Part shown: piece by piece, positions 2,341 through 60,166 of the stretch | Layout: each line of letters begins with the position of its first letter | How positions within the stretch are numbered: position 1 is the first letter of the stretch | Assembly (NCBI GenBank): GCA_900752065.1 | Contig: CAADTT010000136.1 | Span: 34,439 to 98,438 of the forward strand | From: Lachnospiraceae bacterium | GTDB lineage: Bacteria > Bacillota > Clostridia > Lachnospirales > Lachnospiraceae | Length of the DNA stretch: 64,000 bases | Direction: 5' to 3' | Made by a program: the position numbers and the translations under genes | The notes under the pieces: model-generated | Seen by the model: only the letters and a program-made list of their open reading frames with translations | What the model was told of the DNA's origin: nothing | Databases searched by the model: none

Positions 2341-2348
2341 GTGAAAAA

Positions 2349-5244: not shown

Positions 5245-5332
5245 AAATAACCACAAACGGGTTGCAGGATTTCTGAAAACGAGGTATACTAAAACCAGTC
5301 AAATGACACAACGCATAACAGGAGGGATTGCA

Positions 5333-5785: not shown

Positions 5786-5791
5786 TAACCA

Positions 5792-5820
5792 TTGACAACA
5801 GCAGACATGCTGCATAATGT
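5792..5820 (+). promoter_or_regulatory. putative sigmaA promoter (TTGACA -35, CATAAT/TAATGT -10)
   Basis: A consensus -35 hexamer TTGACA at 5792-5797 lies 15-17 bp upstream of an A/T-rich -10. Confidence 0.35.
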
Positions 5821-5854
5821 CTGGAAAAATCAAAGTACACGATAGGAAAGGAGG

Positions 5855-5896
5855 GCTGCCGCAGAACGTAGGGACATTCTGCGGCAGCGCTTTTTA
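5855..5896 (+). terminator. 12-bp GC-rich hairpin plus U-tract (intrinsic terminator or attenuator) located 25 nt upstream of the PPK2 start codon
   Basis: GCTGCCGCAGAA-cgtagggaca-TTCTGCGGCAGC is followed by gcTTTTTA. Confidence 0.7.
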
Positions 5897-5920
5897 TCAG
5901 GCGTTAAAAGGAGGGATAGT

Positions 5921-7405
5921 ATGCTGGAAAAGATTGATCTTTCCAAAAAGCTGGAAAAAAAGGAATTTAAGGAAATCATGGACGCGGAAGCCATCCGTCT
6001 GGGTAAGCTGCAGCGGGAATGCAAGGAATTAAAAATTCCGGTGCTCATTGTTTTTGAAGGTTTCGGTGCAGCAGGAAAAGGAACACTGATCAATCAGTTG
6101 ATCCAGCCGCTGGATCCCAGAGGATTTAAGGTTTTTTCTATCAAGGGGGAATCTGAGGAGGAAAAGATGCGTCCGTTTCTCTGGCGCTTCTGGACGAAAA
6201 CGCCTGAAAATGGACGAATTCATATTTTTGACAGGAGCTGGTACCGCAGGGTCCTGGTGGACCGGTTTGATAAGGTCACGACGGAAAGCCAGCTTGCCTC
6301 GGCGTATCAGGAGATCATCTCCTTTGAAAAGACACTGACAGACGGAGGTGCTGTCATCATTAAGTTTTTCCTGGATATCACAAAGAAGGAGCAGGAAAAG
6401 CGTTTTGGAAAGCTTTTGGACAATAAGGAGACTGCGTGGAGAGTTTCAAAAGGAGATTTAAAGAGAAATAAGCATTTTGAAGAATATAAGATCATGAATG
6501 AGGAAATGCTTCAGAAGACGGATACGGATTTTGCACCGTGGACGATCGTAGAAGCGATGGATCGGGAGTATGCGGCAGTAAAAGTGATCCGGACAGTGGC
6601 GGACCGGCTGGAAGAATATGTGACGAAGAGGAAGGGAAGAAAAGCGGGAAAAGAGTCTGAAAGCGTAAGGCTGGTAAAGCCTGCCTTCCAGTCCTCTATT
6701 TTAAGCAACGCTGATCTGAGCCTTGCCTATACAAAGGAAGAATATAAAGAACGGCTGAAGAATCTTCAGAAACGCCTGTCATTTCTTCACAGTGAGCTGT
6801 ATAGACGGAAAATCCCTGTAGTCCTGGGCTTTGAGGGATGGGATGCAGGAGGCAAGGGAGGCGCCATCAAGCGCCTGACTCAGTGCATGGATCCGAGGGG
6901 ATATGCGGTAAATCCCACAGCAGCTCCCAATGATATTGAAAAGTCCCATCACTATCTCTGGCGTTTCTGGCAGAATATGCCGAAGGATGGCCATGTAGCT
7001 ATTTTTGACAGAACTTGGTATGGAAGGGTGATGGTAGAACGGATCGAAGGCTTCTGCAGTCAGGAGGAATGGATGAGGGCCTATAAAGAGATCAACGATA
7101 TGGAAGAGCATCTGGCGAATAACGGAGCCATTGTCATCAAATTCTGGATGCAGATCGATAAAGATGAGCAGGAGCGAAGATTTAAGGAGCGCATGGAGAC
7201 ACCGGAGAAGCAGTGGAAGATCACCGAGGAGGACTGGCGCAACCGCGAGAAATGGGATGCCTATGAGGAGGCTGTGGACGAGATGCTGATCCGCACATCC
7301 ACCACCTATGCGCCCTGGATCATCGTAGAGGGAAATAACAAATATTATGCCAGGATAAAAGTGCTGGAAACCGTGGTGAAGGCCATCGAGGAAAGGTTGA
7401 AGTAA
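5921..7405 (+). CDS. ppk2: two-domain polyphosphate kinase 2 (class II PPK2; polyphosphate:AMP/ADP phosphotransferase-like)
   Basis: Two tandem PPK2 modules are present, each with a Walker A-like motif (FEGFGAAGKGT and FEGWDAGGKGG) and a WRFW motif. A GGAGGG Shine-Dalgarno precedes the start. Confidence 0.85.
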   Translation: MLEKIDLSKKLEKKEFKEIMDAEAIRLGKLQRECKELKIPVLIVFEGFGAAGKGTLINQLIQPLDPRGFKVFSIKGESEEEKMRPFLWRFWTKTPENGRIHIFDRSWYRRVLVDRFDKVTTESQLASAYQEIISFEKTLTDGGAVIIKFFLDITKKEQEKRFGKLLDNKETAWRVSKGDLKRNKHFEEYKIMNEEMLQKTDTDFAPWTIVEAMDREYAAVKVIRTVADRLEEYVTKRKGRKAGKESESVRLVKPAFQSSILSNADLSLAYTKEEYKERLKNLQKRLSFLHSELYRRKIPVVLGFEGWDAGGKGGAIKRLTQCMDPRGYAVNPTAAPNDIEKSHHYLWRFWQNMPKDGHVAIFDRTWYGRVMVERIEGFCSQEEWMRAYKEINDMEEHLANNGAIVIKFWMQIDKDEQERRFKERMETPEKQWKITEEDWRNREKWDAYEEAVDEMLIRTSTTYAPWIIVEGNNKYYARIKVLETVVKAIEERLK

Positions 7406-15416: not shown

Positions 15417-15599
15417 GGAAACTTTGTTTCCCATATAAAAAGATCATCCGGAAAAACGTGCAAAGCGTAATCTTTTTTACTAAAAACAGTTGAAATAGAA
15501 CATGGTTATTCGTTATAATGACTATTAAGGAACCCGGAGGGAAAGGGGGAGTTTGTGCAAAACATGATGAACCGGGGCAAAATAAAAAAGGAGAATTAC

Positions 15600-18500
15600 A
15601 TGAAGCAGAAATTTAAAAAGGTATTTGCAATGCTGCTCAGTTTATGTCTGGTGCTGGGAATGGTTCAGATTCCGGCGATGACAGGCAAAGCGGCAGCGGC
15701 TGACGGTGAGATTGATACGTCAGAGGAAGGCTATGCAGTGGTAAAGTATTATACGGATACAGAAACTGCAGTTTCATCTGCACAGACGAAGAATGAGAGA
15801 GTATCCGACTTCTTTGAAGGAACAGAGTCTATGATTTGGTCGGTAGACTTCAAGACTACAGAATCAAAGCTTCAGTCTCTGCTCACACTGGAATATAGTA
15901 CATCAAAGTATATGACATTATTTCTCCGCGACGGCAATAAAGTCGGACTGGAGACAAAAGAGGGAACAAACCTTGGTCCTACTGTGGCGAAAAGCTATAC
16001 GGACGGAGCGTGGCATACGCTGAAGCTGGAGATGACAAAGAATCAGAAAGCGATTCTTTCTTTAGATGATGCAGTGGTGGTACAGTCAGAAAACGCACCC
16101 ACCTGTATTGCGACTCTGAGCTGGACGCCGGATACGTTTACCATTGGCGGTATGACAAATTACAGCAGCAAGAGTGGATGGACATTTTCGGGCAGCTTAC
16201 GTAATATTGTGATGAAAAAGAAAGTGGCGGGTCCCATGCCGGCACCTGTTTACACGGAGAAAAATCCGAAAGCAGACAGTACATCCCAGAATATCGGAAA
16301 TTTAACAAATTCAACGTTCCAAATGACATTCCGCCGCACAGAAGCATCTGAGACGGAGGAAACATTGGCAGAATTTGGCTCAAACGGCAAAATTTCCGTG
16401 GATGCCTCAAAGGTCAGCATTGCACTGGGGGACAGCAAAGCAGAGGTCCAGGTAGAAAACACGAGTCTTGCGACAACAAAGTGGCATAACCTTGCGATAA
16501 CGGCAAATGGTGCAAAAGCGAGTGTTTATGTAGATGGCGTTATGGCAGGAGAGACAGATTTTTCCGGTACACTTTCCGGTGCATTGAAATATGGAAACGT
16601 ATATATTTCTGAAGTCAGTGTTTATGACAAAGCATTGAGCGAAGAACAGATTGCAACGCTCCATGAGACAACGTTATCTTCCGCTTATCCTGACGGCACA
16701 GAGAAAATGGAGGGATATGAAAAAACTCCAAACAGAGAAGTCTTTAATTCAGGATTTGACGGATCCGTGGCATACCGTATTCCGGGAATTGCTGTTTCTG
16801 AAAAGACCGGAACGGTGATCACATCTATTGATAAACGCTGGGATCATTCAGGTGACGTAGGTAAGATCGATACAGTCATCCGCAGAAGTGAGGACAATGG
16901 AAAAACCTGGAGCCCGGTCATTCCGGTCATTGATATGCCGGATAGTGATGCCTATACAGTAGACCCGTCACTGGCAGTAGACAATGACCCGGACAGCCCA
17001 TATTACGGCAGGATTTACTGTCTGGTGGATATGTATCCATACAACATCGGTCTGTGGGCGTCTAAGCCTGGTACCGGATATCGGGAGGTAGACGGTGTAC
17101 AGTGCCGGATACTGTATGACAGTGCAAAGAATGAATATATTATGAAGCCTGACGGAACTGTGTATGACAGCAATGGCAATCAGACAGCGTATCAGGTGGA
17201 GACAGAGGCAGCAGCGCCTTACAAGGATCTGGGAGCCCTGTACAAAGATGGTCAGAGAATCGGCAGTATTTACAAGAACAGCGAACTTGTGATCTATGAG
17301 ACAACATATCTGTGGGTAAGTTACAGTGATGACGACGGTTTGACCTGGTCACTGCCAAAAGATATCACACCGGAGGTCAAGGATGACTGGATGTGTTTCC
17401 ATGGCACAGGACCGGGGCATGGCATCCAGCTTCAGAATGGGCGCATTATGTTCCCAACCTACTGCAGCCATACGGGGCAGACTTCAGCATTGTCATCCTT
17501 ACATGTCTATACGGATGATGGAGGAGCGACCTGGCACAGAGGGGCATCGCCAAACGATGTATCAGAGACCTCCAGCGCAGCGAATAGCACCAGGCAATTA
17601 AACGAAAACACCATTGTCCAGTTAGACAACGGGCATCTGATTCAGTTTATGAAAAACAGTACCGCAAATGTAGCAATGGCCATCAGCACGGACAATGGCG
17701 CAAGCTGGGGACAGGTTACTTATGCACAGGGCATTCCGGAGCCATACTGTAATCTGACATCCCTCCACTATCCGGAGAAGATTGTGGATCCCAGGGATGG
17801 GATAGCAAAAGAGGCCATCATATTTGCCAATCCGAGAGGAACGACGAATTTTACCGGGAATGGAAGAGAGGGAGGTACGGTCCGTATTGCGTTTGTAAAT
17901 TCGGACGACACTCTTGACTGGGCATATTCCAAGCTGATCGAAGAGAATAAATTTGTCTACTGCTCTATCGCAGCTATGAACAATGGCAATATCGCTATGA
18001 TTTACGAGCAGGAAGGGTATGCGATGATCGGCGCGGCATTTACTTCCTTTAGCCCGGAATATATCATGGACAGCAACGTTTACGAAAATACACCTGTCCC
18101 GACGGATGTTACAACAACGGTACAGGATGCGAACGGACAGCCTGCAGCGGAATTGGCTCCGGGCAATAAGGTGAATATTCAGGTGACATTTTCCCAGAAT
18201 GTATTTGCGGCAGGAAATGTGACGTTGAATGTGAAGGCAGGCAACAGGACAAAAGAAGCTGTACTGGCAGGAAATGTGGCAGCGAACAAGCTGGAGTTTG
18301 TTTATACGGTCGATGAGTCAGATGAAGGAACGCTGACAGCAACGGGCGAAGTAAATGTAAAAGACGGCGGCGCAGCCGAAACGATTTACAATGTGAGTCT
18401 GACAGATAAACCATGCGTTACAAAAGAAACGGTTGTCGGCGAGATAGCAGCAGGAGCGGAAGATGCTCTGTTTGCGGAGCTTCCTACAGAGGGTATGAGT

Positions 18501-20120
18501 GCAACGGCAGGAAGTGCCGCAGGTGACGGCGCTGCCTCCAATGTTCTTGATGGAAACCGGGATACCATCTGGCATTCCCTTTACCCGGCAGACAATGGCG
18601 TTCGTGAAAAACATTATATTACGATTGCTCTTGGAGAAACCTGTCTGGTAAAAGGACTCGTATATACTCCGAGAAATGGCGGCGGAAACGGCAATTTTAA
18701 GGATTATCAGATCGAAGTCAGCACAAACGGAACGGATTTCACTCCTGTGGCATCCGGAAGCTGGATGAGAAACGCAGATACAAAAACCACGAAATTTTAT
18801 GGCGCAGTGCTTGCGTCCCACGTAAGGCTTCGTTCTATAGACAGTGGCGATGATTTTGCGAGTGCGGCTGAAATCAGAATTATCGGAAGTAAAGATACCA
18901 GTGTGGCATCGGATAAAACAGCCCTCTTGAAAGCATTGGCGGAGGTAGAAGCCTATGGCGACAGGCTGGCCATGGCCGGCAGTACCGGAAATCTGGAGGA
19001 AGCCTTGAAAGCAGCCCGGCAGACGGCAAAGGATTCCAGGGCAGACGAAGCGGCGATTGCAGAGGCGGCACAGAAGCTGAGTGCAGCTATGGCTGAAATT
19101 TCCGGATCTGCAAGAAACAATCTTCAATCTGCGATTGCAAAGGGAAATGAAAAGGTTCAGGAAAATTATAACCTTACAACATGGACGGCATATGCGCAGG
19201 CTCTTGCAGCGGCAGGAGAGATCACATCCGCTTCCAGTGAAAAAGAAGTTCTTATTGCATATTTGAATCTTCTTGAGGCGGAGAAAAATCTTGCTTTTTC
19301 AGCAGCAGGAGATACGGCAATGCTTTCGGAAGTAAAAGCAGAAGCCAGCGCAGTGGTGGAAAATGAGAAGGCGGTTATAGAAGCAGGGCAGAAGAATTAT
19401 ACAAATGAGTCCTGGCAGCAGTATGAGAGTGCATATAACAGGCTGAACAAAGCAGCACAGGACGCAACAAGCGCCACTGCGTTAAAGCAGTACATGCAGA
19501 TGTTACAAAATGCGAAAGCGGCACTTGCATTAAAGGCGGATGCGACATCCGAACCGGATCCAGAACCGACTCCGGATCCCAAACCAACCCCGGACCCCAA
19601 ACCAACTCCGGACATCAAACCGACTCCGGACATCAAACCGACCCCGGACATCAAACCGACCCCAATTCCGGATCCGGCGTCCTCCCTCACAGCAGGCAAG
19701 ACCTACCAGACTGCAGACGGACTGAAATATAAAGTATTAAGCGCTGATAAGAAAACGGTATCTCTTGTAGGAACAGCAAACAAAAAGAAGCTGAAAAAAC
19801 TGACTGTGAAATCATCCGTGAAGGTTGAAGGTGTAAACTGTAAAGTAACGTCCGTTGACGCGAAAGCTTTCAGCGGGTGCAAAAAGCTTACGAAGGTGAC
19901 GGTTGGTGCCAATGTGACATCTATTGGGAAACAGGCATTTTCAGGATGTGGAAAGCTGAAAACGATCGTGATCAAGAGCAAGTCCTTAAAGAAGGTTGGA
20001 GTAAAGGCATTCAAGGGAATCTATAAGAAAGCAGTTATCAAGGTTCCAAAAGCAAAACGAACAAAATACAGAAAACTGCTTGCAAAGAAAGGCCAGGCAT
20101 CAACAGTAAAGATTAAATAA
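15600..20120 (+). CDS. secreted multidomain exo-alpha-sialidase (GH33) with N-terminal lectin-like beta-sandwich domains, F5/8-type-C (CBM32-like) domain, FIVAR-like helical repeats, Pro/Thr linker and C-terminal BspA-type leucine-rich-repeat domain
   Basis: GGAG Shine-Dalgarno; signal peptide MKQKFKKVFAMLLSLCLVLGMVQIPAMTGKAAAA. An RIP motif is present (AYRIPGIAV). Four Asp boxes occur (SEDNGKTW, SDDDGLTW, TDDGGATW, STDNGASW). A discoidin-like segment is present (NVLDGNRDTIWHS). A PDPKPTPDIKPTPDIKP linker precedes a basic C-terminal LRR_5-like tail. Confidence 0.85.
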   Translation: MKQKFKKVFAMLLSLCLVLGMVQIPAMTGKAAAADGEIDTSEEGYAVVKYYTDTETAVSSAQTKNERVSDFFEGTESMIWSVDFKTTESKLQSLLTLEYSTSKYMTLFLRDGNKVGLETKEGTNLGPTVAKSYTDGAWHTLKLEMTKNQKAILSLDDAVVVQSENAPTCIATLSWTPDTFTIGGMTNYSSKSGWTFSGSLRNIVMKKKVAGPMPAPVYTEKNPKADSTSQNIGNLTNSTFQMTFRRTEASETEETLAEFGSNGKISVDASKVSIALGDSKAEVQVENTSLATTKWHNLAITANGAKASVYVDGVMAGETDFSGTLSGALKYGNVYISEVSVYDKALSEEQIATLHETTLSSAYPDGTEKMEGYEKTPNREVFNSGFDGSVAYRIPGIAVSEKTGTVITSIDKRWDHSGDVGKIDTVIRRSEDNGKTWSPVIPVIDMPDSDAYTVDPSLAVDNDPDSPYYGRIYCLVDMYPYNIGLWASKPGTGYREVDGVQCRILYDSAKNEYIMKPDGTVYDSNGNQTAYQVETEAAAPYKDLGALYKDGQRIGSIYKNSELVIYETTYLWVSYSDDDGLTWSLPKDITPEVKDDWMCFHGTGPGHGIQLQNGRIMFPTYCSHTGQTSALSSLHVYTDDGGATWHRGASPNDVSETSSAANSTRQLNENTIVQLDNGHLIQFMKNSTANVAMAISTDNGASWGQVTYAQGIPEPYCNLTSLHYPEKIVDPRDGIAKEAIIFANPRGTTNFTGNGREGGTVRIAFVNSDDTLDWAYSKLIEENKFVYCSIAAMNNGNIAMIYEQEGYAMIGAAFTSFSPEYIMDSNVYENTPVPTDVTTTVQDANGQPAAELAPGNKVNIQVTFSQNVFAAGNVTLNVKAGNRTKEAVLAGNVAANKLEFVYTVDESDEGTLTATGEVNVKDGGAAETIYNVSLTDKPCVTKETVVGEIAAGAEDALFAELPTEGMSATAGSAAGDGAASNVLDGNRDTIWHSLYPADNGVREKHYITIALGETCLVKGLVYTPRNGGGNGNFKDYQIEVSTNGTDFTPVASGSWMRNADTKTTKFYGAVLASHVRLRSIDSGDDFASAAEIRIIGSKDTSVASDKTALLKALAEVEAYGDRLAMAGSTGNLEEALKAARQTAKDSRADEAAIAEAAQKLSAAMAEISGSARNNLQSAIAKGNEKVQENYNLTTWTAYAQALAAAGEITSASSEKEVLIAYLNLLEAEKNLAFSAAGDTAMLSEVKAEASAVVENEKAVIEAGQKNYTNESWQQYESAYNRLNKAAQDATSATALKQYMQMLQNAKAALALKADATSEPDPEPTPDPKPTPDPKPTPDIKPTPDIKPTPDIKPTPIPDPASSLTAGKTYQTADGLKYKVLSADKKTVSLVGTANKKKLKKLTVKSSVKVEGVNCKVTSVDAKAFSGCKKLTKVTVGANVTSIGKQAFSGCGKLKTIVIKSKSLKKVGVKAFKGIYKKAVIKVPKAKRTKYRKLLAKKGQASTVKIK
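19548..19678 (+). repeat. in-frame tandem 15-nt repeats encoding the Pro/Thr linker
   Basis: ccgac(c/t)ccggacatcaaa units are repeated; this is internal to the sialidase gene. Confidence 0.8.
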
Positions 20121-50053: not shown

Positions 50054-50814
50054 CAGTTGGCTCCTTTCAGGTTGGAAAGTTCTTTCTCGACAACGGACTT
50101 CCAATCCTCAAAGCTGCGGCTGCCTACGTAGGTTTCTCCTACGATATTACCGTCTTTATCCACAAAGAAGGTTTCCGGAACAGAATCAATGTTATTCAGC
50201 CTTCCGTTCATCTTTGTTTCATCCGGCAGCAGGAAGGGGTAGGAAGCACCCGTTTTTTCTGCGATCAGCTTTGCTTTTTCCACAGCCTCCTCATTGATAT
50301 TTCCGGTTCCGTCGTCGGCATCCAGGACTACGCCGATGACATTGACACCTTTTTCGGCCATCTCATCTTTGAGCTTTTGCAGCTCCGGAATCTCGCCGAC
50401 ACAGGGGGTGCACCAGGTGGTGAACAGATTTATCATGGTCAGGTCATAATCCTTAAACATTTCTTCCGTATATTCTGTTTCATGAATATCCCTGATTTTA
50501 AAACTGCCGAGATTTTTGACAGGAGCCGGATCTACACCGGGATCGATGATACTTTCAGAAAAAGCGGAATTCTGATCAAAAGGCGCTGGTTCCGTAAGCT
50601 CGGTCGTGATCTGCTTCACCTCATCGGTCAGCTCCTCATCTGAGAGTTCCATTTCTTCGGCTGCCTCTGTGGAATTTTCCGGTGCAGCCGTAGTTTCCTT
50701 TACTGTTTCTTTTACAGTTTCCTTCGTCTGCTCCTTTGAGCATCCCGTAAAAATTGTCATACTTAAAGTGCCTGCCAGAAAGAGGGCACAGATTCTATAA
50801 ATTCGTTTTTTCAT
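50053..50814 (-). CDS. TlpA-family thioredoxin-like lipoprotein (thiol-disulfide oxidoreductase)
   Basis: Lipobox IFTGC. A Glu/Thr-rich linker is followed by the WCTPC active site. Confidence 0.85.
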
Positions 50815-51277
50815 GTTGATCGTATCTCCTTTCTTTTGATGGTGTCATCATATCATACCTGACATAAAATCTTTGTTAAGAAAACATTATTTCTTCAATT
50901 TTTGTAAAAAAAGATGAAAAAACCCTGTGTGTCTTCATCACAGAAGGACTGCGGATGAACGGCTATGAGGCAGATCCCTGTCATGACGGTGCATGGGAGC
51001 TTCCAAGCGGAATATTCTTCTCATATTTTATACGATGCATAAAAATGATATAACGTGAATATAATAATAAATTTGGTTTTTTTCTATAATGAACAGTTGC
51101 TTATGTGGGAAAATTATGTTATGTTTTCAATGGAGGATTCGGTCTATACAATGAAATGACCGGACATGTGGGGAAAGCCGTCAGGCGAGTGACCATGAAT
51201 GCATATGAGATTGACAGTATTCAGGTTATTTACATCTGTGAAAAAGATTGTTAACGTTACATATAAGGAGGGATTTT

Positions 51278-52351
51278 ATGGCAAAAAATGATTTATTCAG
51301 GGTATCATTAATTGGAGGTTACAATAAGACAGATGTCGAAGAATATGTGAAAAACATGGAAAATGAAATTGAGTCTGTTAAAGTAATGTGTAAGAAAGAA
51401 AAAAATGACCTCATACGGCGTATAGACAACAATGAGGAAGCCTCGGTACTTCAAAAGGAGCTTTTGGAAAAGGATCTTCAGGAAGCGCAGGAGAAATTGA
51501 AGGTGGAAACGCAGGAGCTTCAGGAGACGAAGGAGGAGCTGAGGATAAGAACGCAGGAACTTCAGGAGACGAAGGAGGAGCTGAGGATAAGAACGCAGGA
51601 GCTTCAGAAGGCGGAGAAGGAACTGAGTGCAAGAACGCAGGAACTTCAGGAGCTTCAGGAGGAACTGAAGGCAAGAACGCAGGAGCTTCAGGAGGAACTG
51701 AGGGTAAGGACGCAGGAACTTCAGGAGGAGCTGAGAGGAAGGACGCAGGAACTTCAGGAGGAGCAGGAGCAGAAGACACAGGAATCTTTGGATGCGGATC
51801 ATCTTTGGGAAGCAGGGACAGATCAGGCTGCCGACACTACAGAGACGGATGCGCTTCTGCTTGAAAACAAGATGCTGAAACAGGAGCTCCAGGAGAAATC
51901 AGAAGAGCTTCTGATCCTGCAGCAGCAGTATAAACAACTGAAAACGGAAAATCAGGACGAAGGCTTTCTGGATCGGAATACGATTGCTGAAATCATGAGG
52001 GATGCAAGAGAAAATGCAAAGCTGATCAAAGAAGAAACGATGAAAGAGCGGGATAGAATGCTGGAGGCCGCACGGACTGAGGCAGAAAAATTAAAATCAG
52101 ATCTGCTGCTTCAGATGAACAGTGAGCTTGAAGATAAGGGAATCCAACTGATCGCTGCAAAGTATAAGATCATTCAATATATCAAGGAAGTAAAGTTCGC
52201 AGAAGAAGGGCTGTACAATATCCATTCAAGGATGAATAACCTGGTGGAGTCTATGACTGCCCGTCTGGATAATTACTGGGATGGAGAAAAGTACAAGATA
52301 CTGGAGGACACTCTTCGCGAGAGTGAAAATGTACATAAGGAAGGAAAGTAG
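51278..52351 (+). CDS. DivIVA-domain protein with long tandem-repeat coiled coil
   Basis: AAGGAGGG Shine-Dalgarno. The N-terminal DivIVA motif is FRVSLIGGYNKTDVEEYV. About 7 copies of the ELRxRTQELQE heptad-based repeats follow. Confidence 0.8.
   Translation: MAKNDLFRVSLIGGYNKTDVEEYVKNMENEIESVKVMCKKEKNDLIRRIDNNEEASVLQKELLEKDLQEAQEKLKVETQELQETKEELRIRTQELQETKEELRIRTQELQKAEKELSARTQELQELQEELKARTQELQEELRVRTQELQEELRGRTQELQEEQEQKTQESLDADHLWEAGTDQAADTTETDALLLENKMLKQELQEKSEELLILQQQYKQLKTENQDEGFLDRNTIAEIMRDARENAKLIKEETMKERDRMLEAARTEAEKLKSDLLLQMNSELEDKGIQLIAAKYKIIQYIKEVKFAEEGLYNIHSRMNNLVESMTARLDNYWDGEKYKILEDTLRESENVHKEGK
51500..51775 (+). repeat. in-frame tandem 42/33-nt repeats (RTQELQ units) inside DivIVA-domain gene
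   Basis: gagacgaaggaggagctgaggataagaacgcaggaacttcag is duplicated exactly, then degenerates. Confidence 0.85.
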
Positions 52352-52356
52352 ATCTT

Positions 52357-53511
52357 ATGGGACCGGAAAAGAAGCAAACCATCATGATTGTAGACGATTC
52401 AGAAATGAACCGGGCAATCCTGACAGAAATGCTGGCAGAAGAATACGGCATATTAGAGGCTGAAGACGGTCTTGAGGCGATAGAAATATTAAGTCATTCC
52501 TGGCATGAGGTTTCTCTGGTTCTTCTGGACCTCATGATGCCTAAGATGGATGGCTTTGCCGTATTAGAGTATATGAAAAAAATGCAATGGCTGGAAGAGT
52601 TTCCTGTTCTTATAATTTCCGCGGAAAGCGACTCTTCCCAGGTACAGCGTGCATATGAGATTGGTGCGACGGATTTTATCATACGCCCCTTTAACGCACT
52701 GATCGTTCACAAGCGTGTGAATAATACAATCCTTTTATATGAAAAGCAGAAGAGGCTGATGGGCATGTTGGCCGCGCAGATTTATGAAAAGGAGAAACGC
52801 AGCAGTATGCTGATCAATATTTTAAGCCATATTGTAGAATTTCGAAACGGAGAGAGCGGGCCTCATGTCATTCATGTGCGGGTGCTTACAGAGCTGCTGC
52901 TGGATGCACTGTGTAAACGGGACAGCCGCTATCAATTTACGGCTGCGGAGATTTCCATGATCGGAATGGCGTCTTCTCTTCATGATATCGGAAAAATTTC
53001 AATTGCCGAGGGAATCCTTAATAAGCCCGGAAGATTGACAGAAGAGGAGCGGGAAATCATGCAGACCCATTCCATGATCGGTGCGGAGATACTGGAGGAG
53101 CTGCCCGTCTACCAGAAAGAGCCGCTGGTAAAAATCGCCTGCCAGATCTGCCGCTGGCATCATGAGCGGTACGATGGAAATGGATACCCGGATGGACTGA
53201 AGGGAGATGATATTCCAATCTATGCCCAGATCGTGTCGATAGCGGATGTCTATGACGCCCTCACCAGTGAACGGGTGTATAAAAAGGCGTTTTCCCATGA
53301 AAAGGCTATAGAGATGATCTTAAACGGAGAGTGTGGTTCCTTTAACCCGCTGGTGCTGAAATGTCTGAATGACATCGAAAAAGAAATTCCCCAGCGGCTG
53401 AACAGCGAAGTAGAAAGGCATGACCGCAGAGAACTTAAAGATATCGTTCTGGAAAGCCTGGAGAATATGAATCTTTCCGTTTCCGAACAATATCTGGCTT
53501 TGCCGGAGTGA
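52357..53511 (+). CDS. response regulator with HD-GYP domain (c-di-GMP phosphodiesterase, RpfG-like)
   Basis: A receiver domain (IMIVDDSEMNR...LLDLMMPKMDG) is followed by HDIGK...HHERYDGNGYP. Confidence 0.85.
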   Translation: MGPEKKQTIMIVDDSEMNRAILTEMLAEEYGILEAEDGLEAIEILSHSWHEVSLVLLDLMMPKMDGFAVLEYMKKMQWLEEFPVLIISAESDSSQVQRAYEIGATDFIIRPFNALIVHKRVNNTILLYEKQKRLMGMLAAQIYEKEKRSSMLINILSHIVEFRNGESGPHVIHVRVLTELLLDALCKRDSRYQFTAAEISMIGMASSLHDIGKISIAEGILNKPGRLTEEEREIMQTHSMIGAEILEELPVYQKEPLVKIACQICRWHHERYDGNGYPDGLKGDDIPIYAQIVSIADVYDALTSERVYKKAFSHEKAIEMILNGECGSFNPLVLKCLNDIEKEIPQRLNSEVERHDRRELKDIVLESLENMNLSVSEQYLALPE

Positions 53512-53563
53512 TGTTTGCTGTATAATGTTCAAATTAAAATACAAAGGAAGAGGATGTGAAATT

Positions 53564-53926
53564 ATGACATTAAAGGAATGTTACGCCGTTCTCGGCGGAG
53601 GTTATGAAGATGTATTGGGAAGGCTCGGAAGCGAGCGCCTGGTTAAAAGGTTTGTATTAAAGTTTTTAGATGATCCAAGCTTTAGAATGTTGTCAGAAGC
53701 TCTGGAGAGTGAAAATTATGAAGAGGCTTTCCGGGCTTCCCATACGATAAAAGGAATATGCCAGAATCTGAGTTTTATGCATCTGCTGGAATCCAGCAGC
53801 AGATTGACGGAAGAGCTGCGTCCAGGCACGGCACCGGCATCTGATGAATTCTTCGCACAAGTGACGGCGGATTATAGCGCCGCTGCGGAAGCGATTCGTC
53901 AGTACCGTGATTCAGCCACAGCGTGA
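53564..53926 (+). CDS. stand-alone Hpt phosphotransfer protein
   Basis: HTIKG phosphorylatable His motif. AAAGGAAGAGGA Shine-Dalgarno. The longer ORF from 53525 is rejected. Confidence 0.8.
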   Translation: MTLKECYAVLGGGYEDVLGRLGSERLVKRFVLKFLDDPSFRMLSEALESENYEEAFRASHTIKGICQNLSFMHLLESSSRLTEELRPGTAPASDEFFAQVTADYSAAAEAIRQYRDSATA

Positions 53927-53983
53927 CAGATATCAAAATCATTCCTGAATTTTGACGCATAGAATGCGGAGTGGGAGGTAGAA

Positions 53984-56551
53984 ATGAAAAACAGGATGAC
54001 ACGTGTTCTTACATGCACGATTATTGGGATATCTGTTCTGTGTATTTTTGTATTTATGATTATCACGGTCCGGATGAACCAGATGAGCCATGATACCATC
54101 GGACAGGTGGGGAATCTCTATATGTCAGGAACCAGCCAGAGGATCAAGACTCATTTTAATACGATTATTACCACCAGATTTACTTATGTAAAGGCTGTTT
54201 CGGAATATACACCTCCGGAGGAATACGGCAACAATGAAGAGGTCATGCGGGAGCGGCTGAGATACAGCGCCGAGGTACGGGATTTTGAATATCTGGCTTT
54301 AGGATCTGAAGAGCGGACCGAGGATGTTCTGTACGGAAGATCTTTACAGATTCTGGAAGAGGATGCTTTCTTTTCTGCATTGGACGCAGGAGAAGAAAAG
54401 GTGACCGTCGGTATTGACAAGAACGGGGAGCGTGTTCTTCTTCTGGGTATTCCTGCCGTTTATCCTATGAAAAACGGCGGAATGTCCAGTTCTCTGGTAG
54501 CGGGGATTTCCATTGAAAACATTAAGAGTATCCTTGCACTGGATGAGGAGGATGCACTGGTATTTTCCCATGTGGTTTTAAAAGACGGAACCTTCGTGAT
54601 CCGAAGCGGAGATGCCGTCAGGGATAATTATTTTACACGTATCCGGGAAATGTTTGAGCCTCTGGATGGAAAAGATGCGGAGCAGTATGTCAATGAGCTT
54701 GCTGGCGCAATGGAACGGGAGGAAGATTTTTCTACGGAATTTAAGGTAGACGGAGAGCGCAGATATCTTTATTGCAGCGCGCTGCCTTACAGTGATTGGT
54801 ATCTGATTACCATTATGCCTTATGGAGAACTGGATAAGGCTGTTTCCGAGCTTTCAAGCGGAATGCTCTCTAACGCCATAGTGTACTGCGTACTGCTTGT
54901 AGCGGCTATGCTGCTCGTCTTCGGCTGGTATATCCAACTGATAAAAAAACAGATGAAGGAGCTTGAGGAAGCACGCCTGGCAGCGGAGACAGCTAACAGG
55001 GCAAAGAGCGAATTTTTATCGAACATGAGCCATGACATCCGCACACCGATGAATGCCATCGTGGGAATGACAGCTATCGCAGCGGCAAATCTGGACAAGC
55101 CGGAAAAGGTGCAGGAATGCCTGAAAAAGGTTACGATATCAGGGAAGCATCTTTTGGGGCTTATCAATGATGTGCTGGATATGTCAAAAATAGAGAGCGG
55201 GAAAATTACGATGAATATAAGCCGGGTATCCCTGAAGGAAGCCATCGACAGTATCGTTGCGATTATTCAGCCCCAGGCGAAGTCAAAGCATCAGCAGTTT
55301 GATGTATTTATCCATGATATTTCTGCAGAGTATGTGCTGTGTGACGGTGTGCGGTTGAATCAGATCTTGATCAACCTGCTTTCAAATGCCGTAAAATTTA
55401 CTCCGGATGGCGGAAAAATAGAAATGGCCCTGTGGGAAAAGCCATCCCCTCTGGGCAGCAGGTACGTTCGTGTCTATCTGCGGGTAAAAGACACGGGCAT
55501 CGGTATGTCTGAGGAATTTCAAAAGAAAATTTTCGAGGCGTTTGCCCGCGAGGATATTGCCAGGGTCAACCGGACAGAGGGAACCGGGCTGGGAATGGCG
55601 ATCACGAAGTATATCGTAGATGCCATGAAGGGAACGTTGACTATAGACAGTGAATCCGGAAAGGGAACGGAGTGCAATCTTCACCTTGATTTTGAACGCC
55701 TGCCGGATAAAGAGATCAATATGGAGCTGCCCGCCTGGAACATGCTGCTGGTGGATGACGACAGACAGCTTTGTGAAAGTACAGTGGCTTCTCTGAAAGA
55801 TATGGGGATCCGGGCAGAATGGGCGCTGGATGGAGAGATGGCCCTGAAGATGATCGAAGACCGTCATAAAAAACAGGAGGATTATCAGATTATCCTTCTG
55901 GACTGGAAGCTGCCCGGCATGGATGGCATTGAAACAGCAGAGAAAATCCGCAGCCGTTTATGCAAAGATATCCCCATCCTTCTGATTTCTGCTTACGACT
56001 GCACCGAGATCGAAGAACATGCAAGGGAAGCAGGGATCAACGGCTTTATTGGAAAGCCACTGTTTAAGTCTACGCTTTTCTATGGATTAAGGGAACATAT
56101 GCAGAAAATTGAGAAACCCTTGGAGTCTGAGAAACATCCAGAAGATTTTGAAGGAAAACGCATTCTGCTGGCAGAGGACAACGAACTGAACTGGGAAGTG
56201 GCAGAAGCGCTTCTGGAGGATCTGGGACTTGAACTGGAGTGGGCGGAAAACGGACAGATCTGCGCCGAAAAATTTGCACAGTCCCCTGTTGGATTTTATG
56301 ACGCAGTGCTTATGGATCTTAGGATGCCGAAGATGAACGGCTATGAGGCGGCGGATGCGATCCGTGCCTCGGGACGGCCTGACGCGGATATTCCTATCCT
56401 CGCTATGACGGCTGATGTTTTTTTGGAGGATATTGAGAGGTGCCACGAACACGGCATGAATGGCCATGTGCCGAAGCCCATTCAGGTAGAAGAGGTTGCA
56501 AGGCTTCTGGAAGGCTTCTGGAAAGAAAGGCAGGCGAATAGCTGTGAATGA
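53984..56551 (+). CDS. hybrid sensor histidine kinase (2 TM + periplasmic sensor, HisKA, HATPase, two receiver domains)
   Basis: H-box [11 protein letters not shown]; GTGLGMAI; two REC modules (VDDD...DWKLPGMDG and AEDN...DLRMPKMNG). Confidence 0.85.
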
Positions 56552-59500
56552 AAAAGAATATGTACGGATTTTAGATTCTCTTCCAGTGACAGGCGTTTAT
56601 GTCATAACGGAGGACAATCATGAAATTCAATATTATAACAAGCGGGTCAGGGAGGTTGCCCCGGAGGTACGCCGGGGTGACATCTGCCATGAATTGTGGA
56701 AAGGCGTCTGTGCCAACTGTCCCCTGAAAAGTATAGGAGATAAAAAGCAGGCACGCACGATCAATTATGATAATCCGTTTGGAGAGGTAGTTGAAATCGT
56801 GGCATCACGGATTTTATGGGAAGATCGTATCCCTGCCTTTTTAATTACCGTATCCCCTCACGAAGAAGTGGCTGACGTTACTTACTACCGGGTGCTGCGG
56901 GTCAATCTGACGAAAAACACTTTTCATGTGGTACATGGCACCAGAGATGGATTTCGGGTGATGGAGGAGGAACAGAGCCCCCTGTCATCCTGGTTGCAAA
57001 GCCTGCTGCGGAAGGGATATATTCATGAAGAGGATGAACAGTGCTTTCTGGAATTTATCCAGCTTGACAATCTTCGCGGCAGACTGAAAGACAGACCCGG
57101 AGGAAACCGATGCATTTACAGATACAGGAGCGGAAATGAATTCCGCTGGCATATCATGGAGATTGTTGCAGATTTTAATTACTGTGATGAAGAACAGACT
57201 GCCATGATCTATGTAAAGGATGTCCACGACGCTTTCAAAGAAAGTGTCAGAAGAGAAGAAATCAATATCAAAGGCCAGGAAATTATTGATGCTCTGGGTG
57301 AAATGAATCTTGGAATCTATATTGTCGATCTTCAGACTGGAATCGCGAATGTGATAAAGACAACGGAAGTCGCTAAAAAGGCCATCCATTCAGATAATTT
57401 CCTGTGGGATGATATTGTGGAGGCTTTGGGAAGAACCTGTACAGCCGTGGAATTTCAGGATGAATTTAAGGCAAAATATTCCTGTGAGGCCATGCGCCAG
57501 GCATGGAAAAACGGTGAGAAGAAAAAGATGTTCATTTACCGGGCCAGGATCGGAGAGAACTGGCGCTACGTTTCTGCAACCGGATATTTTAAGAAAAATA
57601 GAAGCGGCAGGGGCTATGCCATCCTTACTTTTCAGGATGTGGATGACCGTACCCGTGAAAATATGCTGCGTATCCAGAACGACAGGCGCATGGCTGCCCT
57701 GATCAAATCCAGATACGATGTCATTAATACAGTGGATCTGGAGTCGGGCCACTGTGAGCGTGTTCATATACGGGATGGCATTTTGCAGGAGCGGCTGGAG
57801 GGAGACTACAGTTGCTATATTCAAAAAGCGCTGGATATGCACATAGCTGAGGAGGATCGGGAGAATTTCAACAATGCGTTTCTGCTGGAAAATCTCAGAA
57901 AACGTGCAGAAGATGTGGAGGATTATAAGGAAGAAATTTTTCAATACCGTTTCCGTGAGGGTGCTGTCCGGTGGGTCGAGGATCGTGTGATGTACATTCG
58001 CCAGGGAAGCCAGATAACAGTGAATATTCTGGGGCGCGACATCACAAAGAATAAGGAGGCAGAGGAAGCAGCGAAGAAGGCATTTAATGAGAAGGTATCT
58101 ATCATCAATACCCTGAGCGGTATGTTTTTCGCCTCTTACTACGTGGATCTGGAACAGGACTGCTTCCGCTCTGTGACCCAGGAGGGGAAGGCTGAACAGA
58201 TGCTGGGAGAAGCACAGAACTACAGCAATGGAATCCGGGCCTATGCAGAGCATTTCATCCATCCGGATGACCGTGCAGACTTTATCCTTTACATGGACCG
58301 TCAGAATCTTTTAAATGCGCTTAGCCCGGAGAATCCTTACATCGCCTTTGAATACCGGAAGATGCCTGAAAATGGACAGAAAAGAGCATGGATACGAGCT
58401 ACCGCGGCGCTGGCTGAGACATCTCCTGACGGACGGCCGAGACGCATCGTATATGTGGCGCAGGATATCACAGAGAGCAAGCTGCGGGAAGAGCAGGAAC
58501 AGCTTGCCCTTGAAGCGGCATGTGAAGCGGCAAACCGTGCCAATGCTGCAAAGAGTGAATTCCTGTCCCGTATGAGCCACGATATCCGGACGCCGTTGAA
58601 CGCGATCATCGGCATGACAGCTATTGCCGGAAGATATCTGGATAATCAGGAGCGCGTAGCCGACTGTCTGGGAAAAATCGTTACTTCCAGCCGCCATCTT
58701 CTGTCTCTGATCAATGAAGTTCTGGATATGAGCAAGATCGAATCAGGAAAGATGGAACTGACAGAAGAAGAGGTCGATCTGTCGGAGCTGGTGAGCAGTC
58801 TGGTAACGATGATGCGGCCGTCTATAGAAGAGAAAAACCATCAATTTGAGGTACATATTTCCAACCTGAAAACAGAGCATGTTATCGGTGACTCGATACG
58901 TTTGCAGCAGGTGTTTATAAATATCCTGGGAAATGCCATCAAATATACGCCCCCCGGAGGAAAAATAGAAATGGAAATCCGGGAAAAGCCATCTTCCTCC
59001 TACGGTTATAGCTGTTTTGAATTTGTATTTCGTGATACGGGGATCGGCATGAGCCGGGAGTTCCAGAAGAAACTCTTTGAGCCGTTTACCCGTGCGGAGG
59101 ACTCCAGAATCAGCACCACCGAGGGAACCGGGCTGGGCATGACCATTGCCCGGAATATCGCCCGCATGATGGACGGAAGTATTGAGGTGGAAAGTGAACC
59201 GGGCAGGGGAACACAGTTTACCGTTACTCTTATGCTTAAAAAATATGACGCAGATGAACCGGACTTAAAGCAGCTTATGGATCTTCCTGTACTGGTGGCA
59301 GATGATGATGAGACAGCCGGGCAGATGGCGTGCCTGATGCTGGACAATATTGGCATGAAGAGCGAATACGTCACAAATGGGGCCGATGCCGTGGAGCGTG
59401 TCTTTATCCATCATCAGTCCGGTGATGATTACTTTGCGGTAATTCTGGACTGGAAAATGCCGGATATGGATGGAATCGAGACGGCAAGGGCAATCCGGGC

Positions 59501-60083
59501 GCAAGTTGGACCGGATGTGCCGATCATTATTCTTTCTGCCTACGACTGGAGCAGTGTAGAAGAGGAAGCACGGGATGCAGGCGTCAATGGGTTTATCGCA
59601 AAGCCGCTGTTCCGTTCACGCCTTGTCTATCTGTTCAGCCAGTTTACTGACAGGGAGAAATTCTCTGAGGAGTCGGATAAAGACAGAAAAACCGAGACTT
59701 CTTTGGCAGAAAAGAGGATTCTTCTGGTGGAGGATAATGCGCTGAACCGTGAAATTGCGGAAGAGATGATCTATCAGCTCGGAGCCAGCGTGGAAACTGC
59801 GAAAAACGGGAAGGAAGCAGTAGAGAAATTCGAGCAGATGGAAGAAGGATATTATGATATGATTGTTATGGATATCCAAATGCCTGTCATGAATGGTTAT
59901 GAGGCTTCACGGACGATCCGGAGTCTGCCGCGTCCGGATGCGGCAGAGATTCCGATTGTTGCCATGACAGCCAATGCCTTTGCAGAAGATATGATCCAGA
60001 GCCGGAATGCCGGGATGAATGAGCATCTCACGAAACCTCTTGGCATCGAAGATCTGGAAAAATGCATACGGCGCTGGACTTAA
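56496..60083 (+). CDS. cytoplasmic multi-PAS hybrid sensor histidine kinase with N-terminal Cys cluster and two receiver domains
   Basis: C-x8-C-x2-C cluster ([12 protein letters not shown]); PAS-like repeats; H-box [11 protein letters not shown]; GTGLGMTI; two REC domains. Start is uncertain: an in-frame GTG at 56544 overlaps the upstream stop. Confidence 0.8.
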
Positions 60084-60098
60084 TATCTATAAAAATAA

Positions 60099-60166
60099 AA
60101 AAGAGTATTTCCACAGGGATCAGGGATTTAAATTACATGTTCTCCTGATGGGAATACTCTTTTTCC
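60099..60166 (+). terminator. long-stem intrinsic terminator
   Basis: AAGAGTATTCC...GGAATACTCTT followed by TTTT. Confidence 0.75.

Follow-up and report, generated by a model that had tools for sequence, protein, structure and literature searches.

A probable five-gene operon for a branched phosphorelay ending in a predicted c-di-GMP phosphodiesterase, headed by a coiled-coil protein of pel-associated family, in a Lachnospiraceae bacterium

Five plus-strand open reading frames at 51278-60083 of the window, the 64-kb stretch of DNA analysed here, lie in the order P1-RR-Hpt-HK1-HK2 (Table 1). P1 and RR are separated by 5 nt, RR and Hpt by 52 nt (13 nt with the alternative Hpt start at 53525) and Hpt and HK1 by 57 nt, while HK1 and HK2 overlap by 8 nt (56 nt with the alternative HK2 start at 56496). 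A ribosome binding site precedes every start codon: AAGGAGG ahead of the P1 ATG and GGAAGAGGA ahead of the Hpt ATG at 53564, the start favoured by most gene callers. This is the tight same-strand arrangement that an earlier, sequence-only reading had described. The terminator which that reading placed at 60099 was also recovered, as a strong hairpin followed by a U run; none of 200 shuffled sequences was equally stable. The hairpin escaped a simple terminator scan because of its long loop, and looks bidirectional, having an A run on its upstream side and a U run on its downstream side. In the intergenic gaps no structure was found beyond that of shuffled controls. Of the 460-nt promoter region proposed upstream, the non-coding stretch stands, but promoter-like sites occur in it no more often than the shuffle expectation, so that the promoter is unproven; an Rfam search of the same region returned nothing at gathering score or at E <= 1, and hence no c-di-GMP riboswitch there. 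Judged by this layout, the five genes look like one transcription unit ending at the strong terminator, a probable operon whose genes would be co-transcribed.

Table 1. Features of the five-gene locus and its flanks (window coordinates)
Feature	Position	Strand	Basis or remark
Upstream non-coding region, 463 nt	50815..51277	.	between divergent thioredoxin-like lipoprotein gene and P1
Single promoter-like site, TTTTCA-17-TACAAT	51124-51152		within the 463-nt upstream region
P1, 357-aa coiled-coil protein	51278..52351	+	ORF; family alignments; AF2 model
P1 N-terminal motif MAKNDLFRVSLIGGYNKTDVEEYV..., residues 1-45	51278..51412	+	weakly DivIVA-N-like
P1 tandem 33/42-nt repeats, RTQELQE...-type heptads	51471..51784	+	TRF
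P1 conserved C-terminal region, residues 226-357	51953..52351	+	family alignments
RR, REC-HD-GYP regulator, RpfG family	52357..53511	+	Pfam REC + HD_5/HD
RR REC domain	~52381-52716	+	phospho-acceptor Asp58 at nt 52528
RR HD-GYP domain	~52774-53361	+	motifs HDIGK, HHERYDGNGYP present
Hpt, stand-alone, 120 aa	53564..53926 (or from 53525)	+	PF01627 32.1 bits, cutoff 24.6
HK1, membrane hybrid kinase	53984..56551	+	Pfam HisKA+HATPase_c+2xREC; TM prediction
A7 poly-A tract directly after HK1 TM2	54943..54949	+	
HK2, cytoplasmic hybrid kinase	56544..60083 (or from 56496)	+	Pfam HisKA+HATPase_c+2xREC
Intrinsic-terminator-like long hairpin	60098..60164	+	dG -27.9 kcal/mol, z -5.17

HK1 runs from a first transmembrane segment (residues 4-34) through an extracytoplasmic domain of ~255 aa and a second transmembrane segment (residues 290-322) to HisKA (His350), HATPase and two receivers (Asp640 and Asp778), as befits the membrane hybrid kinase predicted earlier. 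The extracytoplasmic domain gives a weak dCache_1 match (14.5 bits across the full profile length). In two independent assemblies the poly-A tract is an A8 allele, which splits HK1 into products of 327 aa and 532 aa. HK2 consists of a ~550-aa N-terminal stretch, PAS, HisKA (His679), HATPase and two receivers (Asp969 and Asp1110). It had been described as a cytoplasmic multi-PAS kinase; no transmembrane segments were predicted, in keeping with the first term, but a single PAS domain (PAS_3, adjoining HisKA) is detectable, and the first 540 aa have no Pfam or PDB relatives. Both kinases contain the H-box histidine and the G1 and G2 boxes, each has the two receivers assigned to it, and the receiver aspartate is kept in all five receivers of the locus. 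The free Hpt protein is likewise as described, with a PF01627 match above cutoff and its phospho-acceptor His60 (nt 53741) within SHTIKG.

RR had been identified as a REC-HD-GYP protein and predicted to be a c-di-GMP phosphodiesterase, and its domain matches and motifs uphold this assignment. Its best PDB match is PmGH (4mcw, 3e-35), followed by the cGAMP-specific HD-GYP protein 5z7c (1e-28). Alignment of the catalytic residues showed that RR keeps eight of eight PmGH metal ligands together with the equivalents of K225, D308, GYP, R314 and K317, all of them invariant; RR thus shares the trinuclear-site ligands and the GYP motif with PmGH and TM0186-type active phosphodiesterases. It differs from PmGH in carrying Asn164 in place of Asp183 and in its regulatory domain, which is a GAF domain in PmGH and here a REC domain with Arg110 in place of the canonical Lys; both substitutions are present in 121 of 121 homologues. 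Work on the roles of HD-GYP residues found the Ala mutant of PmGH Asp183 to be inactive (PMC4159591), and the two substitutions suggest that the activity and activation of RR may differ from those of characterised enzymes. More than 8000 protein clusters match RR at E <= 1e-40, with ~60% identity among the matches listed. REC-HD-GYP proteins constitute the widespread RpfG family, HD-GYP is the predominant clostridial c-di-GMP hydrolase, and in several RpfG-family proteins c-di-GMP hydrolysis depends on the phosphorylation state of REC (Galperin HD-GYP census, bioRxiv 10.1101/2021.11.05.467447). The relay itself is therefore of a common kind, not an unusual one.

P1 is a member of a small family of cytoplasmic coiled-coil proteins that is Lachnospiraceae-specific and uncharacterised. 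AF2 modelled it as entirely helical (pLDDT 80, pTM 0.29), and no transmembrane segment was predicted. Members open with a conserved N-terminal motif, whose F7, R8, G13, G14, N16, D19 and V20 vary little or not at all; a repeat region that differs between members separates this motif from a C-terminal domain that is again conserved. Repeat copy number differs among strains, giving proteins of 333-386 aa in otherwise near-identical strains, and the P1 of a sister species has another 14-aa repeat and a length of 414 aa. A PDB profile search found the first helix of the C-terminal region to resemble ATP-synthase b and V-ATPase E stalks; the family signature that follows this helix, GIQLIAAKYKI.QY...RLD(D/N)YW.GE, has no known relatives in that search or in Pfam and NCBIfam scans.

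The contigs derive from metagenome assemblies (ENA, JGI, Logan), and every named relative belongs to the Lachnospiraceae. The sister species (L043; RR 86% identical) has P1-RR-Hpt-HK1, with the same 5-nt P1-RR gap, and lacks HK2. Among the other RR paralogues examined, the closest (61% identity) belongs to an HK-RR-Hpt module without P1; in another locus (L013), the kinase encoded next after P1-Hpt shares 61% identity with HK2. The five-gene set is thus not conserved as a whole, and fails the synteny check that the sequence-only reading had named as a possible refutation.

A survey of P1 in 36 distinct, mutually related Lachnospiraceae loci placed it at the flank of a Gram-positive pel cluster, DUF2194(PelA_DA)-PelF-PelG::CotH-CotH-VTC-DUF4956-DUF4832, in ~21. 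In 10 of the 36, the 5 kb downstream of P1 include a GGDEF or HD-GYP gene; c-di-GMP or relay genes adjoin P1 in ~11, with differing gene orders and RR paralogues, and neither pel nor c-di-GMP genes are near it in about one third. In one locus (L054) P1 stands at the head of the pel cluster, and in Egerieimonas it comes after a Wzy-type polysaccharide cluster. In Claveliimonas bilis a single run comprises pel cluster-P1-dCache hybrid HK-REC-HD-GYP-PAS-GGDEF; other orders are P1-HK-REC-HD-GYP-Hpt-GGDEF (L050/L028) and pel-P1-Hpt-HK2-like-HK (L013). Directly downstream of P1, 171 kb contain 13 ORFs for diguanylate cyclases or phosphodiesterases (counting three that begin just before the P1 stop) versus a single one in the remaining 433 kb of these loci, an enrichment that is not a probability, as the loci are related and not phylogenetically independent. 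The c-di-GMP genes following P1 in other species are often cyclases (GGDEF) and not phosphodiesterases; most P1 homologues have pel genes or a cyclase, and no HD-GYP gene, beside them. The coupling of P1 to HD-GYP implied by the sequence-only reading consequently gives way to the pel cluster as the dominant partner of the family. P1-adjacent RRs share 42-44% identity with the window RR, versus 61% for the RR of the P1-less module; the P1-adjacent RRs represent different paralogue lines, so that P1-RR adjacency is not merely one inherited block.

The combination of pel with cotH, PPP, DUF4956 and DUF4832 has been described for clostridia and streptococci, and the Pel of B. cereus is regulated by c-di-GMP through PelD, CdgF and CdgE (PMC7112168; PMC12345266). 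In many Lachnospiraceae, P1 homologues are the first or last gene of such loci (pelDEA_DAFG with cotH, PPP/VTC, DUF4956 and DUF4832) and often have GGDEF or HD-GYP genes after them, much as c-di-GMP enzymes are adjacent in B. cereus. Unlike these loci, the 64-kb window contains no pel or other EPS genes, and the Pel link consequently rests wholly on other species. No P1-like gene is among the accessory genes described for pel loci ("coiled" occurs 0 times in PMC7112168), and a literature search on Pel polysaccharide and DivIVA found only an unrelated review.

Since the conserved home of P1 is the edge of the pel cluster where c-di-GMP-turnover genes join it, we read the locus, on balance probably, as an operon encoding a branched, c-di-GMP-lowering phosphorelay, which would form the regulatory arm of exopolysaccharide or biofilm control. 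HK1 would receive an external signal through its Cache-like domain and HK2 a cytoplasmic one through its PAS-containing region. Each kinase would autophosphorylate on its H-box histidine, and one of the two receiver aspartates in that kinase would take over the phosphoryl group. Both kinases lack an Hpt domain, so the stand-alone Hpt (His60) would collect phosphoryl groups from the two and deliver them to Asp58 of RR, switching on c-di-GMP hydrolysis by HD-GYP. The domains, with their catalytic residues intact, accordingly imply the multi-input His-Asp-His-Asp relay to REC-HD-GYP proposed earlier. In the exopolysaccharide control pathway P1 would serve as an accessory or adaptor, not as a pole marker, and in the window species the regulatory arm would stand apart from the pel genes, at any rate over these 64 kb. 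The earlier reading is thus partly confirmed in what it observed and partly supported in what it made of it.

P1 may instead be functionally unrelated to the relay, a fast-evolving coiled-coil gene in a variable chromosomal region. The difference in content between the sister species, the shifting repeat copy number, the third of P1 loci without pel or c-di-GMP neighbours and the HK-RR-Hpt module without P1 are all consistent with this. However, P1 adjoins c-di-GMP or relay genes in varied orders and beside different RR paralogues, its 5-nt spacing to RR is conserved and cyclase and phosphodiesterase genes are very much scarcer in the rest of those loci, and we consider the explanation unlikely, if still a serious one.

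The sequence-only reading had P1 as a DivIVA-domain protein, and a DivIVA-type curvature sensor could tether RR, or the relay in its entirety, to poles or septa and create a local c-di-GMP sink. Full-length P1 has no Pfam match; the N-terminal 61 aa reach 17.5 bits with PF05103 (DivIVA; gathering score 28) and 11.7 bits with TIGR03544 (cutoff 22), so the claim fails at the Pfam and NCBIfam cutoffs. Sub-threshold PF05103 matches recur in the family, in 20 of 23 N-termini (best E 3e-5) and 14 of 26 full-length homologues. Like DivIVA and GpsB N-terminal domain proteins, P1 has a short N-terminal motif running directly into a long coiled coil; its family shares with DivIVA an aligned core, (F)..GY...V..(Y/F)(V/L), and a later A..I..EA-type helix that matches DivIVA profile positions 75-116. 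In hhalign, the family aligned to B. subtilis DivIVA 1-60 (PDB 2wuj) with P = 1e-3 and a probability of 22%, while a family profile run against the PDB did not find DivIVA, GpsB or Wag31 chains. The position of DivIVA Phe17 is hydrophobic in most members and Ile in the window P1; that of the membrane-binding Arg18 is an invariant Gly across the family. P1 further differs from DivIVA and GpsB by a one-residue insertion, ~190 aa of variable repeats and a genomic context of EPS and c-di-GMP genes in place of a division cluster, and has a C-terminal signature domain that DivIVA lacks. Family-level support for P1 being DivIVA thus appears weak; by these comparisons a housekeeping DivIVA is rejected, and P1 is no demonstrable DivIVA, its N-terminus being weakly DivIVA-like. 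The conserved 5-nt gap and the DivIVA-like core fit a tether, but with the Gly at Arg18, pel genes or a cyclase beside most homologues and the closest other RR paralogue examined in a P1-less module, we regard it as quite improbable; sequence is silent on localisation, and the proposed polar or septal c-di-GMP sink is unsupported. Equally improbable is an HD-GYP domain that is no c-di-GMP phosphodiesterase in vivo and hydrolyses 3'3'-cGAMP or acts mainly through protein-protein contacts: the match to 5z7c, Asn164 and the existence of RpfG-family proteins that lack catalytic activity and signal through interactions (bioRxiv 10.1101/2021.11.05.467447) would suit it, whereas the invariant catalytic residues and the GGDEF cyclases, a c-di-GMP partner, neighbouring related loci speak against it, and a search for a CD-NTase or defence family detected none.

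Among known systems, the c-di-GMP-lowering relay that we favour resembles Xanthomonas RpfC/RpfG, whose RpfG gives the REC-HD-GYP regulator family its name, in its REC-HD-GYP output and in signalling by a His-Asp-His-Asp relay. It differs in that Hpt, fused to the kinase in RpfC, is a separate protein, that two kinases with unrelated sensor domains and two receivers each are present, and that no DSF-synthesis genes lie near the locus. RpfG lacks two metal ligands (PMC4159591), whereas RR keeps all eight. In the Vibrio LuxN/LuxQ/CqsS-LuxU-LuxO system, several Hpt-less hybrid kinases converge on one free Hpt protein, and the logic here is the same; the output differs, being a predicted c-di-GMP hydrolase in place of the sigma-54 activator LuxO. 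The top NCBIfam similarities of HK1 and HK2 are to the LuxQ, TorS, BarA and ArcB models, at scores so far below the family cutoffs that the two kinases are not orthologues of these proteins.

The observation of a five-gene relay locus proved largely real, the relay itself ordinary, and the DivIVA-coupled polar c-di-GMP sink proposed for it unsupported; the gain lies in a new assignment for its first gene, P1, and not in the relay. The sequence-only reading described five same-strand genes with small gaps or overlaps, and ORF analysis bears this out (table): P1, a coiled-coil protein then called a DivIVA-domain protein, is followed by a REC-HD-GYP regulator (RR), a stand-alone phosphotransfer protein (Hpt) and two hybrid kinases, HK1 and HK2. 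The junctions between the genes fold no better than shuffled sequence, and internal terminators, which would have argued against a single unit, are represented by one weak scan match. Upstream of P1 lie 463 nt of non-coding sequence with a divergent thioredoxin-like lipoprotein gene on the far side. Rfam returned nothing at gathering score in the whole window and nothing at E <= 1 in 50780-51320, so that the leader shows no c-di-GMP-I or c-di-GMP-II riboswitch. By its layout, the five-gene unit looks like an operon.

Features of the window and of compared loci (window coordinates unless a locus from another assembly, L-number, is named)
Feature	Coordinates	Strand	Description
Five-gene locus	51278-60083	+	five ORFs
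P1	51278-52351	+	357 aa; ATG after strong AAGGAGG site
P1 N-terminal motif			M..N..FR..LFGGYNK.DV.EYI (family alignment)
P1 middle			variable coiled coil; 33/42-nt tandem repeats in window species
P1 repeats	51471-51784		copy number differs among strains: 333, 343, 357, 360, 385, 386 aa
P1 C-terminal region			conserved, ends GIQLIAAKYKI.QY...RLDDYW.GE
RR		+	starts 5 nt past P1 stop
RR Arg110	52684		in place of universally conserved receiver Lys
RR Asn164	52846		at PmGH Asp183 position
Internal terminator match	53493-53507		6-bp stem, poor T run
Hpt	start 53564	+	most likely ATG, GGAAGAGGA just upstream; majority choice of gene callers
HK1		+	starts 57 nt past Hpt stop
HK1 poly-A	54943-54949		A7 in window
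HK2	start 56544	+	most likely GTG; 8-nt overlap with HK1 stop
HK2 residues 48-59	56685-56720		Cys-His...Cys-x2-Cys cluster
Terminator hairpin			67 nt, 14 nt past HK2 stop; A run before, U run after; dG -27.9 kcal/mol, z -5.2
Peptidase_U32 - FtsW/RodA - ... - PPK2 block	28-7405
Sialidase- or adhesin-like protein	15555-20120		1521 aa; Laminin_G, BNR/sialidase-like, F5/8 type C, BspA-type LRR
P1 of sister species	L043 8751-9995		414 aa; different 14-aa repeat unit
Region lacking HK2	L043 11709-14189		compared with window 56544-60083
P1 heading pel cluster	L054 1573-12328
P1 ending Wzy-type cluster	L051/L052 1-10765		Egerieimonas

The claimed multi-input phosphorelay, predicted to converge on c-di-GMP hydrolysis, stands, with its domains and catalytic residues present and its catalytic inventory complete. 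RR has the features of the RpfG family, an N-terminal REC domain (PF00072, 83 bits) with phospho-acceptor Asp58 among the receiver residues D13, D14, D58 and S88, and a complete HD-GYP domain (HD/HD_5; HD_5 97 bits). Aligned with the HD-GYP phosphodiesterase PmGH (PDB 4mcw; 3e-35), RR residues E166, H170, H209, D210, H238, H268, H269 and D297 correspond to PmGH E185, H189, H221, D222, H250, H276, H277 and D305, and all eight ligands of the PmGH trinuclear iron site are thereby kept. Also retained are G276-Y277-P278 and the equivalents of PmGH Lys225, Asp308, GYP, Arg314 and Lys317. The assignment of a catalytic HD-GYP domain thus holds for the metal ligands and GYP and departs from the reference at Asn164, which stands for PmGH Asp183, the residue altered in the inactive Asp183-to-Ala mutant (residue roles from PMC4159591). 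Both Asn164 and Arg110 are invariant in 121/121 closest homologues and are therefore traits of the subfamily, not decay; they could alter activation or catalysis across a family of regulators that is very abundant in gut clostridia. That the HD-GYP domain acts on cGAMP, or through protein contacts only, we consider highly improbable, with Asn164 on one side and the full set of ligands on the other.

Hpt scores 32.1 bits against PF01627 (cutoff 24.6), with His60 within SHTIKG, the conserved HxxKG motif. In Pfam, HK1 and HK2 each carry HisKA, HATPase_c and two REC stretches, the make-up of hybrid kinases, with H-box His350 (HK1) and His679 (HK2), receiver Asp640/778 (HK1) and Asp969/1110 (HK2), and the DTGIGM and GTGLGM (G1 and G2) boxes. 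Neither has a fused Hpt domain, each ending in its second REC, and neither is an RpfC-type kinase, which would have such a domain at its C-terminus. Hydrophobic segments 4-34 and 290-322 of HK1 enclose ~255 residues that give a full-length but weak dCache_1 alignment. HK2 has no TM segment, and of the PAS domains in the multi-PAS description one is detectable, adjoining HisKA. Neither Pfam nor PDB yields a match to the first 540 residues of HK2, and a single-sequence AlphaFold model of the sensor region is unusable (pLDDT 35). The cysteine- and histidine-containing cluster near the HK2 N-terminus might bind a metal or sense redox state. In two independent assemblies (L001 and L008), whose sequence is 99.99% identical over 9.5 kb apart from this tract, the HK1 poly-A run is A8. 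With that allele HK1 is broken into a sensor of 327 aa and a kinase of 532 aa, and this may reflect phase variation of the extracellular input by strand slippage, or else a mistake in assembly.

To judge by its homologues, the relay is of an ordinary type with very many members. A search with RR returned at least 8000 protein clusters at E <= 1e-40, the best 120 of these mostly ~60% identical, and a census of HD-GYP proteins describes REC-HD-GYP as the widespread RpfG family and HD-GYP as the predominant clostridial c-di-GMP hydrolase (bioRxiv 10.1101/2021.11.05.467447). One RR paralogue, at 61% identity, belongs to a three-gene hybrid HK-RR-Hpt module without P1, and another homologue adjoins a GGDEF gene. 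Modules in which hybrid kinases feed a REC-HD-GYP regulator rank with the commonest signalling modules of gut clostridia, and the relay alone adds little.

Several metagenome assemblies carry a near-identical five-gene locus at one and the same chromosomal site, with the his operon on one side and a radical-SAM gene on the other. A sister species (L043; RR 86% identical) has P1-RR-Hpt-HK1 at this site with HK2 cleanly absent: the terminator region comes straight after HK1, and then the radical-SAM gene. The closest relative of HK2 found (61%) comes after P1-Hpt in another locus, L013, so the second kinase was gained or lost recently. Among the loci compared, the five-gene unit is conserved within the species and not beyond, and the synteny that the sequence-only reading expected in related genomes fails at that boundary. 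Its claim of a self-contained conserved unit is not borne out.

What kind of protein is P1? Full-length P1 has no Pfam match, and its first 61 aa score below the cutoffs of PF05103 (17.5 bits, cutoff 28) and TIGR03544 (11.7, cutoff 22), so the DivIVA domain assigned to it is not upheld. The family is small (one search gave 27 clusters, another 32), with homologues at 34 loci in species-representative genomes, all named ones Lachnospiraceae. Judged by E-value only, PF05103 is the most consistent match for 20/23 of the family's N-termini and in 14/26 full-length homologues (E <= 0.01; best 4e-7); two homologues carry a precomputed PF05103 match. Comparison of the family with residues 1-60 of B. 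subtilis DivIVA by hhalign gave P = 1e-3 and a probability of 22%, with a one-residue insertion. Phe17 and Arg18 of B. subtilis DivIVA reportedly form the membrane-binding pair of the N-terminal crossed loop. These positions, in a reference sequence verified against PDB 2wuj, align to Ile12-Gly13 of P1 (Phe-Gly in most homologues, Gly13 invariant), and P1 does not carry the pair. Against PDB, the N-terminal family profile found no DivIVA, GpsB or Wag31 and only chance coiled-coil matches, and the C-terminal profile only generic ATP-synthase stalk-like helices; the AF2 model is all long helices (pTM 0.29). PADLOC anti-phage defence models gave no match to P1, RR or Hpt. We read P1 as a coiled-coil protein with a remote likeness to DivIVA that cannot be demonstrated to be one. 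The proposed polar or septal sink would draw on the PF05103 resemblance of the family and is opposed by the subthreshold scores and the missing membrane-binding pair; we regard it as very unlikely. The repeats of P1 vary among strains and between species, so the length of the coiled coil evolves fast while both ends are conserved.

The comparative evidence points to P1 belonging with exopolysaccharide (EPS) clusters and their c-di-GMP control genes. When ORFs around P1 homologues were clustered and then annotated, a conserved same-strand run emerged, DUF2194 - PelF (DUF3492+GT1) - PelG::CotH - CotH - VTC - DUF4956 - DUF4832 - P1, with P1 usually 8-35 nt past the preceding gene; about 21/36 distinct P1 loci have this arrangement. 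The run corresponds to the Gram-positive pel cluster, the Pel exopolysaccharide genes, with the cotH/PPP/DUF4956/DUF4832 accessory set described in clostridia and streptococci (PMC7112168); the DUF4832 gene product of S. intermedius is a Pel hydrolase (PMC12345266). In L054 the pel cluster begins with P1, ahead of 709-aa and 299-aa unannotated genes and two DUF2194 genes, and in Egerieimonas it ends a Wzy-type polysaccharide cluster (Wzy_C, three GT2, acyltransferases, a carrier protein and an AMP-ligase). The Peptidase_U32...PPK2 block of the window lies a few kb downstream of P1 in Egerieimonas, which suggests large-scale synteny with P1 displaced by ~44 kb in the window genome.

The downstream side of P1 is often occupied by c-di-GMP genes: (i) pel-P1-dCache hybrid HK-REC-HD-GYP-PAS-GGDEF in Claveliimonas bilis; (ii) P1-HK-REC-HD-GYP-Hpt-GGDEF in L028/L050; (iii) pel-P1-Hpt-HK2-like-HK in L013, where the HK2-like protein is the 61% relative; and (iv) GGDEF proteins directly downstream of P1 in L020, L023, L024, L025, L027 and L035. 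Thirteen DGC/PDE ORFs, from 10/36 loci, fall in the 171 kb lying <=5.2 kb downstream of P1 (three whose starts precede the P1 stop by a few bases are counted as downstream), against 1 in the other 433 kb of the same loci; because the loci are related, the count is indicative and should not be taken as a probability. In B. cereus, Pel synthesis is activated by c-di-GMP through PelD, with the cyclase CdgF and the phosphodiesterase CdgE regulating reciprocally (PMC7112168).

In C. bilis and L050, the RRs that adjoin P1 share 42-44% identity with the window RR, less than the 61% of the P1-less paralogue, and P1 therefore adjoins different paralogous modules. In the window, no pel genes came up in tblastn searches with the seven proteins of the cluster, and its larger ORFs include no other EPS or c-di-GMP genes. 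P1 may instead lie beside the relay by chance, as a gene without connection to it in a variable region; set against the recurrence of P1 beside DGC/PDE genes, this reading seems to us unlikely. On the most economical model, the locus would serve the control of matrix production as a regulatory arm that lowers c-di-GMP, and P1 would be an accessory or adaptor in that control; beyond domain content and synteny, we infer it. A bolder version, to which we give little credence, is that the P1 family would be an accessory, as yet undescribed, of the Pel and other EPS machineries of Gram-positive bacteria, coupling them to local c-di-GMP turnover as a membrane-proximal coiled-coil scaffold, or possibly as an adaptor that responds to c-di-GMP through the invariant C-terminal R-L-D-x-Y-W signature. 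P1 would then bring a dedicated cyclase/phosphodiesterase module beside the secretion complex, and in the window species would recruit the Hpt-fed HD-GYP regulator. This scaffold is close in spirit to the polar sink and differs in location; if true, it would mean that a gut Firmicute confines c-di-GMP signalling in space, around exopolysaccharide secretion and not at the poles.

The literature searched on Pel, DivIVA and c-di-GMP yielded no P1 family and no relevant link of DivIVA with HD-GYP or Pel; a Bdellovibrio paper naming both DivIVA and HD-GYP concerns RomR, not a DivIVA-PDE pair. On the genomic associations described here, P1 represents an uncharacterised coiled-coil family that is associated with Pel and c-di-GMP genes across Lachnospiraceae. 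Since Gram-positive Pel regulation is only partly understood and the roles of pel accessory genes have been explicitly left open (PMC7112168, PMC12345266), P1, at the junction of pel and c-di-GMP, is a concrete candidate for matrix production or aggregation in gut commensals. Elsewhere in the window, and unrelated to the relay locus, the 1521-aa protein resembles a sialidase or adhesin.
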